Shown here: positions 27,298-28,323 of the stretch, one piece after another | How positions within the stretch are numbered: position 1 is the first letter of the stretch | Layout: every line of letters begins with the position of its first letter | From: Escherichia coli | GTDB lineage: Bacteria > Pseudomonadota > Gammaproteobacteria > Enterobacterales > Enterobacteriaceae | DNA: 64,000 nucleotides | NCBI RefSeq assembly: GCF_029227855.1 | Contig: NZ_CP074356.1 | Strand: one strand, 5' to 3' | Notes under the pieces: generated by a model | Seen by the model: only the letters and a program-made list of their open reading frames with translations | Told to the model about the DNA's origin: nothing | Database searches by the model: none | Made by a program: the position numbers and the translations under genes

Positions 27298-28323
27298 TTA
27301 AAATAGCAATTGAGTCAAATAGCCCATCAAGATAGCCATACCTAATATAACCGTCAGGAATGCAGCTATCATCGGCATTCTGAACATTGATTTAAGTAAT
27401 ATCACTTCCGTCAGGCTTGCGCCGGCACTGCCGATGATTAATGCCATTAATGCTCCCAGACCCATTCCTTTTGTCATCAGAACAGATGCCAGAGGGATAA
27501 CTGCCTCAGCCCGGATATACAGCGGAATACCGACAACGGCGCTTAATGGGATGGCGAAGGGATTATCTGCTCCTGCATGAGCGGCAATCCACGCTGAGGG
27601 AATAAAGCCATAAATAAAAGAGCCTATTAATACCCCTAACAAAAGATATGGCAGTACATCTTTAAACTGTTGCAACGCATCTTTGGTGGCTAGTTTTATG
27701 GGATTAATACTTGCCACTGCTTTGGTATTGCAACAGTTAACGACGGGTTTCTCAATGGCTTTAGCCGTTGGACTACAGCAACTCACTTCTATTGGCGTAT
27801 ATGTCGTCCCCGGCAAAGTTTTTGCCGACGCTTTGGCTGGAGCACAACAATTTGCTGATGAGCTTTTACTGGCAATGATATGACGTTCAAACCCCAGAGA
27901 ATCCAGGATAATACTGGCAAGAACGGAGACGCCGGTGGCGATAATCGCGTACAACAAGGTGACTTTCCAACCAAAGGTCACCCACATTAGTCCGACGATA
28001 ATGGGATTAAGTAATGGTGAAACAAATAAAAAAGTGAGAGTCGGACCAAACCCGGCTTTCGCTGACAACAATCCACGTAACATGGGTATTGTCGAGCAAC
28101 TACAGAACGGGGTAACGGCTCCCAACAGAGCAGCCAGGAGATAGCCTCTCCCTTTTCTGGCCCCCATCATCTGCTGGATTTTATGGTCTGGCACCTTTTG
28201 TCTTATCAGGCTGACACCGGCACTAATCACTATAAACAGCAACGAAAGCTCGACGGCGAGAAACACAAACATCTCTGCGGCATCTTGCAGCATCGCAAGC
28301 CAACTACTCATACGTAACCTCAT
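27298..28323 (-). CDS. ArsP-like membrane permease (DUF318-type) with TPFCSCS motif and a Cys-pair-rich loop
   Basis: ORF 341 aa, polytopic; AVTPFCSCSTIP motif; loop with NCC, SCC and NCC pairs; alternative start at 28311 has a better SD. Confidence 0.65.
   Translation of the reverse strand: MRLRMSSWLAMLQDAAEMFVFLAVELSLLFIVISAGVSLIRQKVPDHKIQQMMGARKGRGYLLAALLGAVTPFCSCSTIPMLRGLLSAKAGFGPTLTFLFVSPLLNPIIVGLMWVTFGWKVTLLYAIIATGVSVLASIILDSLGFERHIIASKSSSANCCAPAKASAKTLPGTTYTPIEVSCCSPTAKAIEKPVVNCCNTKAVASINPIKLATKDALQQFKDVLPYLLLGVLIGSFIYGFIPSAWIAAHAGADNPFAIPLSAVVGIPLYIRAEAVIPLASVLMTKGMGLGALMALIIGSAGASLTEVILLKSMFRMPMIAAFLTVILGMAILMGYLTQLLF

Follow-up and report, generated by a model that had tools for sequence, protein, structure and literature searches.

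An Escherichia coli gene pair of the SpArsR-ArsP type encodes a PF03773 permease with a cysteine-pair-rich central loop

Two described systems offer the closest comparisons for the locus reported here. The first is the SpArsR-ArsP cassette of Shewanella putrefaciens 200 (Sput200_1227/1226; Chen, Nadar and Rosen 2017, cited in PMC12124457, PMC13236881 and PMC11868830), in which, as in the E. coli pair, an ArsR-type repressor gene is divergent from a gene for a PF03773 permease with three CC pairs in its central loop. For the Shewanella pair these three papers describe tests of the regulator and the promoter only, and the latter two present SpArsR as a methylarsenite (MAs(III))-selective repressor with a two-coordinate site formed by Cys101 and Cys102, lacking the third Cys that would permit As(III) binding and giving no response to As(III) (PMC13236881, PMC11868830). 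The second is Campylobacter jejuni ArsP, also a member of PF03773, which is described in PMC6205960 (after Shen 2014 and Chen 2015) as an efflux permease for MAs(III) and roxarsone(III) that does not export As(III).

The E. coli pair lies within a 64,000-nucleotide stretch of chromosomal DNA from contig NZ_CP074356.1 (the window, meaning the whole of the stretch analysed), in which the gene order is gor, dinQ, arsR-arsB-arsC, the divergent regulator and permease genes, a frameshifted yhiS, slp, dctR, the hde genes and gadE (Table 1). At the level of sequence the pair matches the cassette type represented by SpArsR-ArsP, because both proteins, the gene order and the operator-like sites agree. 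As a cassette the pair is of a known and ordinary kind; the feature for which a search of the open-access literature on ArsP and cysteines returned no description is the Cys-rich loop between the two halves of the permease.

Table 1. Positions in the window of the permease and regulator genes, their cysteine motifs, the operator-like sites and the adjoining ars operon.
Feature	Position	Strand	Basis or remark
PF03773/ArsP_1 permease gene	27298..28323	-	341-codon ORF; ORF list, Pfam
Disordered central linker joining the two structural repeats (ORF residues 149-207, 341-aa numbering)	27703..27879	-	AlphaFold2, length variation among homologues
CC pair 3 (C197-C198, in NCCNT)	27730..27735	-	Translation
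CC pair 2 (C182-C183, in SCCSP)	27775..27780	-	Translation
CC pair 1 (C159-C160, in NCCAP)	27844..27849	-	Translation
TPFCSCS motif (aa 71-77; C74, C76)	28093..28113	-	Conserved intramembrane Cys pair of the family
Operator-like site 1, ATATTTCCAGAATAATCGAAAT (ATATTTC-N10-GAAAT)	28335..28356	.	Direct and inverted repeat analysis; divergent promoter region
Operator-like site 2, ATATTTCTGGTATTATCGAAATAT	28372..28395	.	Repeat analysis
SpArsR-type ArsR/SmtB repressor gene, 98 aa	28419..28715	+	Pfam HTH_20/HTH_5, NCBIfam metalloregulator; divergent from permease
Regulator C73	28635-28637	+	
Regulator C91-C92	28689-28694	+	
Chromosomal arsRBC operon	28838..30972	-	Directly beside the cassette; RefSeq annotation of identical region
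arsC	28838-29263	-	NCBIfam glutaredoxin-dependent arsenate reductase, 306 bits
arsB (ORF)	29276-30586	-	RefSeq annotation of identical region
arsR	30619-30972	-	RefSeq annotation of identical region

For the comparison of regulators, the SpArsR coding sequence (Sput200_1227) was taken from the supplement of PMC12124457, with repair of two bases that the extraction of the text had dropped; Shewanella W3-18-1 encodes a protein identical to the resulting 105-aa product. The E. coli regulator shares 58% aa identity with SpArsR over 92 residues (E 3e-41), and its only three cysteines, C73, C91 and C92, align exactly with C83, C101 and C102 of SpArsR. All three are invariant in a 28-sequence alignment and 97-100% conserved in a set of 118 homologues. 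The tail of the protein, CCVNSKIA, contains no further Cys, and there is no third Cys matching Cys102 of AfArsR. Some database names for this regulator would make it a BigR/YgaV-type persulfide sensor, a candidate that was rejected on a score of 38 bits against a cut-off of 155 and on the absence of the α2-region Cys of such sensors.

The two intergenic regions differ in size, the E. coli spacer being 95 bp with two sites and the Shewanella spacer 222 bp with three, and both carry operator-like sites of the form ATATTTC-N10-GAAAT. In Shewanella the regulator gene is divergent from that of a 332-aa PF03773 permease, and the 222 bp between them is the exact length of the arsP promoter fragment in the biosensor paper (PMC12124457). 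A relative of the E. coli operator-like site 1 is found in this Shewanella promoter, and the 22-nt sequence AGATATTTCTGGTATTATCGAA (28371-28392), which overlaps site 2, is identical to a segment of it (L010:5957-5978). The site 2 region additionally overlaps a weak minus-strand promoter-like match. The sequence-only reading had cited vicinal thiols as ligands for As(III) and other soft metal(loid)s; the link to arsenic is strengthened by a neighbouring regulator that shares 58% identity with an MAs(III)-selective repressor with a CC site of its own, but inorganic As(III) no longer appears to be the likelier ligand. Methylarsenite or another trivalent organoarsenical held in two-coordinate fashion is the more likely partner of the loop thiols.

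The ArsP-like identity proposed for the permease holds: Pfam ArsP_1 (PF03773) matches residues 13-338 at 181.1 bits (cut-off 32.3, E 3.6e-53), and the permease is 53% identical to the SpArsR-controlled Shewanella ArsP (E 2e-115). RefSeq places the start at the ATG at 28311, giving a protein of 337 aa (WP_000100287.1) that is named simply 'permease' in identical E. coli genomes. The TPFCSCS motif is present as reported and is at least 90% conserved in an alignment of 89 homologues, and CSC is the strongest conserved motif in descriptions of related PF03773 families. There are eight cysteines in the whole protein: C74 and C76 of this motif, and six that form the three CC pairs of the central loop. 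A conserved Cys pair in the C. jejuni protein was reportedly found by Chen in 2015 to be needed for transport, and presumably corresponds to the CSC pair in TPFCSCS of the E. coli permease. The nearest curated NCBIfam models are SO_0444 Cu/Zn efflux (NF033936; 107.6 bits, cut-off 300) and SaoE metal efflux (NF040736; 85.9 bits, cut-off 325), two families that belong to the same superfamily as the permease and share its CSC motif. Membership of either was rejected because the scores lie far below the cut-offs, and no SAO genes are present in the neighbourhood. A search of PDB sequences with the permease gave no match up to E 1.

Of 5,426 complete E. coli genomes, 2,221 (~41%) contain a match spanning at least 80% of a 1.6-kb cassette query. 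K-12 MG1655 has no genes between arsC and yhiS, that is, it lacks the cassette. Relatives of the permease are also found on approximately 1,000 plasmid records, typically as a bare regulator and permease unit adjoining IS26, IS1 or an ISL3 transposase gene, and ISPst2b has been described as carrying an 'ArsR-like regulator plus permease of unknown function' (PMC6947025). The E. coli copy adjoins arsRBC, whereas the Shewanella copy sits within a large ars island; with one genome taken per species, other ars genes are found no more than 5 kb away in only about 6 of the 55 cassettes, and the arsenic link therefore rests mainly on SpArsR.

This distribution bears on the alternative that the permease exports soft metals (Cd, Hg, Cu/Ag, Zn) and that its loop is metallothionein-like, the arsRBC neighbourhood being coincidental in E. 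coli. Such a role would be in keeping with the metal efflux families that give the best NCBIfam matches, with the location of most cassettes away from ars genes, with the solitary plasmid copies, and with a 48%-identical version encoded beside an ISL3 transposase near a sil operon; one distant CC-rich relative is moreover encoded among genes for a Metal_resist protein, a cation-efflux protein and a PadR regulator, and the CxxxC and CC clusters would themselves fit Cd, Hg or Cu(I). We nevertheless consider this unlikely, given how far the NCBIfam scores fall under their cut-offs and given a regulator of the SpArsR type, a responder to MAs(III) and not to As(III), with an operator in common. The papers on SpArsR cited here mention no responses of this repressor to metals. 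The metagenome contigs that contain distant CC-rich representatives are short and offer heterogeneous contexts.

The minus-strand translation of 27724-27870 reads SKSSSANCCAPAKASAKTLPGTTYTPIEVSCCSPTAKAIEKPVVNCCNT and bears out the three vicinal Cys-Cys pairs described in the loop, the 49-aa string first reported corresponding to residues 154-202. The interval assigned to that string, 27724-27864, is correct at its end but not at its start, which was placed six bases too high (the true value is 27718) so that the last two residues were cut. Its description as a low-complexity Ala/Lys/Thr linker between the two halves of the transporter is also apt: the linker is rich in A, S, T, P and K, and in an AlphaFold2 model (89-sequence alignment, mean pLDDT 87) residues 145-203 in the 337-aa numbering are without secondary structure and have pLDDT values of ~46-56, around 50 between two well-modelled halves. 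CC pair 1 occupies a conserved proximal position about 11 residues past the FERH anchor with which TM4 ends. In 200,000 shuffles of the whole protein, 17 contained at least three CC pairs. Tandem Repeats Finder detected nothing in the permease gene; at the DNA level, the loop repeats of this allele are thus not recognisable as tandem ones. Several plus-strand ORFs overlap the loop (27683-27883 and others) and were dismissed as spurious, the conserved frame being that of the minus strand.

Close homologues of the permease are encoded in Escherichia, Salmonella, Enterobacter, Proteus, Citrobacter and Aeromonas, and have a nearly invariant membrane core with a loop of 50-103 residues containing one to four CC pairs. 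Homologues offer independent evidence that the pairs are not due to chance: among 96 distinct loops from these close relatives, Cys makes up 8.9% of the residues and 500 of the 687 loop cysteines are in CC pairs. A scan with the regulator alignment, using one genome per species, yielded 80 loci; the C...ECC motif is present in all 80 regulators, and 55 of the loci have a PF03773 permease gene within 5 kb, mostly adjacent and divergent. All 54 full-length regulator-linked permeases have at least two loop cysteines (range 2-12, in loops of 29-109 residues), and in 47 of them the CSC pair accounts for all of the cysteines outside the loop. The first loop Cys falls 10-16 residues beyond the end of TM4 and belongs to a CxxxC in 36 and to a CC in 12 of the 54; considering the whole loop, CC pairs are present in 43 and CxxxC without CC in 11. 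Mean identity is 73% in the core, compared with 40% in the alignable loop columns. Cysteine clusters are maintained in a linker whose remaining sequence turns over rapidly. The loop of the Shewanella ArsP, VPCCNTDPAPVISSCCYTKPAPITSSCCNTP, has its three CC pairs in a sequence otherwise unrelated to that of E. coli. Shewanella also has a second PF03773 paralogue, encoded next to a thioredoxin-like gene, that shares 30% identity and is devoid of loop cysteines.

The wider family was surveyed with 95 cluster representatives, binned by core identity to the E. coli permease. At least two loop cysteines are present in all eight representatives with 50% identity or more (none is without), in 14 of the 23 at 40-50% (six have none) and in 32 of the 64 below 40% (28 have none). 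Because loop cysteines fade with distance across these representatives, the feature belongs to this clade and not to ArsP/DUF318 proteins as a whole. By these alignments the Cys-rich linker is a selected trait of the clade: its proximal cluster is conserved and its distal units vary. The conservation that the sequence-only reading proposed as a check on the CC pairs is thus seen within the clade, though only as Cys-rich character and a proximal cluster and not at the individual positions, and it does not generalise to the family, as the distant representatives and the Shewanella paralogue without loop cysteines illustrate.

That the loop is instead a neutral low-complexity spacer, with cysteines that are functionless by-products of repeat expansion, is an idea that draws on the extreme variation in its length and sequence, on the indel polymorphism among E. 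coli alleles (333- and 337-aa variants) and on the lack of conservation of the distal CC positions. It accords poorly with the high proportion of Cys among the loop residues, with the finding of no Cys-free loop among the 54 species-level relatives or the 96 close variants, with the fixed position of the first cluster, and with the near absence of Cys from the remainder of these proteins, and we regard it as very improbable.

In the AlphaFold2 model both halves follow one plan, in which a long helix is succeeded by two helices of 12 and 13 residues, a second broken pair and a final helix. In the first half the breaks fall at TPFCSCS in the first helix pair (between predicted helices 55-66 and 71-83) and at SPLLNP in the second. 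A fold search matched the model to inverted-repeat elevator transporters of the DASS and ArsB groups (PDB 10tp, 8r33, 8zkw, 6wu1), which have no detectable sequence similarity to the permease and are larger than its 337 aa. The model thus points to an inverted-repeat, hairpin-containing, DASS/ArsB-like fold. ArsB is reported to bind arsenite through polar residues by hydrogen bonding (PMC13381914), whereas the permease would use a Cys pair.

The published hydropathy view of the family is of 4+4 transmembrane segments (PMC7176098), an arrangement in which the central loop and the N-terminus would share a side of the membrane. A simple positive-inside count over eight segments had given a periplasmic loop, an assignment that was revised once charges had been analysed across the family and the fold had been searched. 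Loop 1 averages 4.35 Lys plus Arg across the family, compared with 8.1 for the central loop and 1.7 for loop 7-8, and the N-terminus and loop 5-6 are acidic and poor in both residues. A 4+4 parallel model would set equivalent loops of opposite charge on one side, whereas three crossings and one re-entrant hairpin per repeat give about 15 Lys/Arg inside and about 4 outside. From this Lys/Arg bias and the fold matches to inverted-repeat proteins of the ion transporter superfamily, the linker is predicted to be cytoplasmic, as the sequence-only reading had supposed, with the N-terminus outside; TPFCSCS would then form the tip of a re-entrant hairpin entering from the cytoplasm. Should the parallel topology apply instead, the loop would be periplasmic, its cysteines could form DsbA-dependent disulfides, and a structural or release-side role might be envisaged. 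In favour of this, the strongly basic loop 1 (six Lys/Arg) would sit opposite the central loop; we think this reading quite improbable.

We give roughly even odds (about 0.5) to the reading in which the inter-repeat linker of this SpArsR-ArsP-type permease is a tethered thiol antenna for trivalent (organo)arsenicals, feeding the CSC site. The loop is a plausible substrate-catching arm because the adjacent regulator matches a methylarsenite sensor with the same Cys-Cys motif. Each thiol pair of the loop would bind one trivalent organoarsenical such as methylarsenite, for which two sulfur ligands suffice, and the cognate repressor would use the same chemistry at its own C-terminal CC pair. A flexible linker in the reducing cytoplasm could concentrate substrate at the cytoplasmic mouth and pass it by thiol exchange to the inward-facing CSC site for export, in the manner of a built-in metallochaperone, and differences in repeat number would tune its capacity. 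Vicinal cysteines on flexible segments that exchange ligands with a partner site are familiar from the metallochaperone ArsD, which hands As(III) to the ATPase ArsA, and from MerA, in which a flexible C-terminal Cys-Cys arm serves the enzyme active site. The thiols of those systems are on a separate soluble protein or an enzyme tail, whereas the pairs in the permease are in its own linker and vary in copy number. We know of no Cys-rich linker in ArsB.

Counting against substrate capture by the loop, the CC positions are not conserved and distant family members often have no loop cysteines. The Campylobacter/Helicobacter-type representatives, which are ~31-35% identical to the E. coli permease, mostly have 0-2 loop cysteines, so that the characterised C. 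jejuni ArsP, which is from this group, probably lacks a CC-rich loop. As this is the sole member of the family assayed for transport, the loop would appear to be dispensable for transport family-wide.

The same linker could conceivably be a regulatory sensor, in which a ligand on the thiol pairs shifts the linker and so gates or activates the elevator movement; comparable gating has been proposed for the His-rich cytoplasmic loops of ZIP and CDF zinc transporters. The linker bridges the final helix of repeat 1 and the first long one of repeat 2, tension at such a point could influence domain movement in elevator-type folds, and the proximal Cys cluster stands at a fixed spacing from TM4. However, the span of loop lengths and the variable number of repeats fit poorly with a precise allosteric device, and the adjacent repressor already provides transcriptional control, so that we consider a sensor improbable.

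Metal-binding loops and tethered thiol arms are a familiar theme. If the antenna reading is correct, the permease would be a simple example of a transporter bearing its own thiol chaperone; the common Cys-Cys chemistry of sensor and pump within the cassette would also be explained. Methylarsenite has come to be seen as a naturally occurring, antibiotic-like toxin, and animal-feed additives are a source of trivalent aromatic arsenicals. Many conjugative plasmids carry the cassette. Because it is absent from K-12, which is the host for arsenical resistance assays and biosensors, what it contributes to the tolerance of organoarsenicals in gut and farm isolates may have been overlooked. Judging by the modelled fold, PF03773 proteins may be small transporters of the elevator type, akin in architecture to ArsB; this would revise the 4+4 topology model used for the family.

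A further and more tentative proposal is that the linker is a modular, fast-evolving, transporter-tethered organoarsenical chaperone, in which each CC or CxxxC unit would hold one methylarsenite by two sulfurs, as the CC site of the SpArsR-type sensor does, and relay it to the intramembrane CSC site, the number of units (1 to 7 across species) setting the capacity for capture. A substrate antenna built into a secondary transporter of the elevator type would, on this proposal, be a class not described before, and ~40% of E. coli strains, K-12 not being among them, would have a dedicated methylarsenite defence. The units themselves differ between lineages, the Shewanella loop having a CC-x-T-x-PAP repeat where that of E. 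coli has CC-x-P-x-AK-like units. Repetition is also seen in the loop of Aeromonas simiae, with CCDTPAPVST-like units, and in that of Endozoicomonas, with SCCDSKPAP-like units.

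E. coli is polymorphic for insertion or deletion of the regulator-permease cassette in the arsC-yhiS interval (window 26718-28837 versus 3650663-3651290 in K-12 MG1655, locus L094), and K-12 MG1655 has no such cassette between these two genes. With a threshold of at least 80% query coverage, the cassette is found in 2,221 of the 5,426 E. coli genomes that are complete. Approximately 1,000 plasmid records carry relatives, mostly as the two-gene unit alone, adjoining IS26, IS1 or ISL3. A 281-aa ORF at this locus has no matches in Pfam or NCBIfam; its location suggests that it is equivalent to the frameshifted hypothetical protein CDS of RefSeq, at the same locus as the K-12 yhiS pseudogene.

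The divergent promoter of the window and the SpArsR-controlled arsP promoter of Shewanella (L010) share a 22-nt sequence, AGATATTTCTGGTATTATCGAA, with a 100% match; the former contains two operator-like ATATTTC-N10-GAAAT sites and the latter three.

Coordinates of features in the window and in related loci
Feature	Location	Strand	Context
Operator-like site 1, ATATTTC-N10-GAAAT	window 28335-28356		95-bp regulator/permease intergenic promoter region
Operator-like site 2, ATATTTC-N10-GAAAT	window 28372-28395		95-bp regulator/permease intergenic promoter region
Operator-like sites (n=3)	L010:5798-5817, 5852-5875, 5957-5983		Shewanella arsP promoter
Regulator C73 codon (SpArsR C83)	window 28635-28637	+	
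281-aa ORF	window 25872-26717	-	
Permease and regulator pair	L004:4563-7313		plasmid p253, NZ_MT648288.1
Distant permease and methyltransferase-like gene	L008:1064-3326		metagenome-assembled genome contig CAYJCA010000033.1

The equivalent of regulator C73 is retained in every homologue examined, and the SpArsR sources consulted give the ligand site as Cys101/Cys102 only. Many Vibrio and Photobacterium regulators (L040, L046, L061, L079, L083 and others, and homologues P0369 and P0375) have one or two additional cysteines 4-6 residues C-terminal to the CC pair, with tails such as CCVNEQCN, CCADEQC and CCVDECC. These resemble the three-coordinate As(III) site of AfArsR (Cys95/Cys96/Cys102). Both the window regulator (CCVNSKIA) and SpArsR (CCSGQ) lack the extra cysteine. 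Ligand selectivity may vary between members of the clade. The C...ECC motif is present in all 80 SpArsR-type regulators (L014-L093, regulator at ~5001-5290 of each), including the 25 with no PF03773 permease within 5 kb. The neighbours of the latter look unrelated; as named from reading translations alone, they include genes apparently for glycogen synthesis, one for a protein resembling a chemoreceptor and one for a protein resembling a peptidase.

The plasmid p253 permease (48% identity) has a Ser/Thr/Cys-rich loop with seven cysteines, most of them single; it is paired with an EECC-type regulator, with an ISL3 transposase directly downstream of the pair and silE/silS/silR ~2.4 kb away. The two genes probably represent the passenger pair, of ISPst2-like type, that PMC6947025 mentions. 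The distant L008 permease has four CC pairs in its loop and lies directly downstream of a gene for a 219-aa SAM-methyltransferase-like protein (UbiE/Methyltransf_11/25/31 matches); the two may form an arsenic methylation-export pair.
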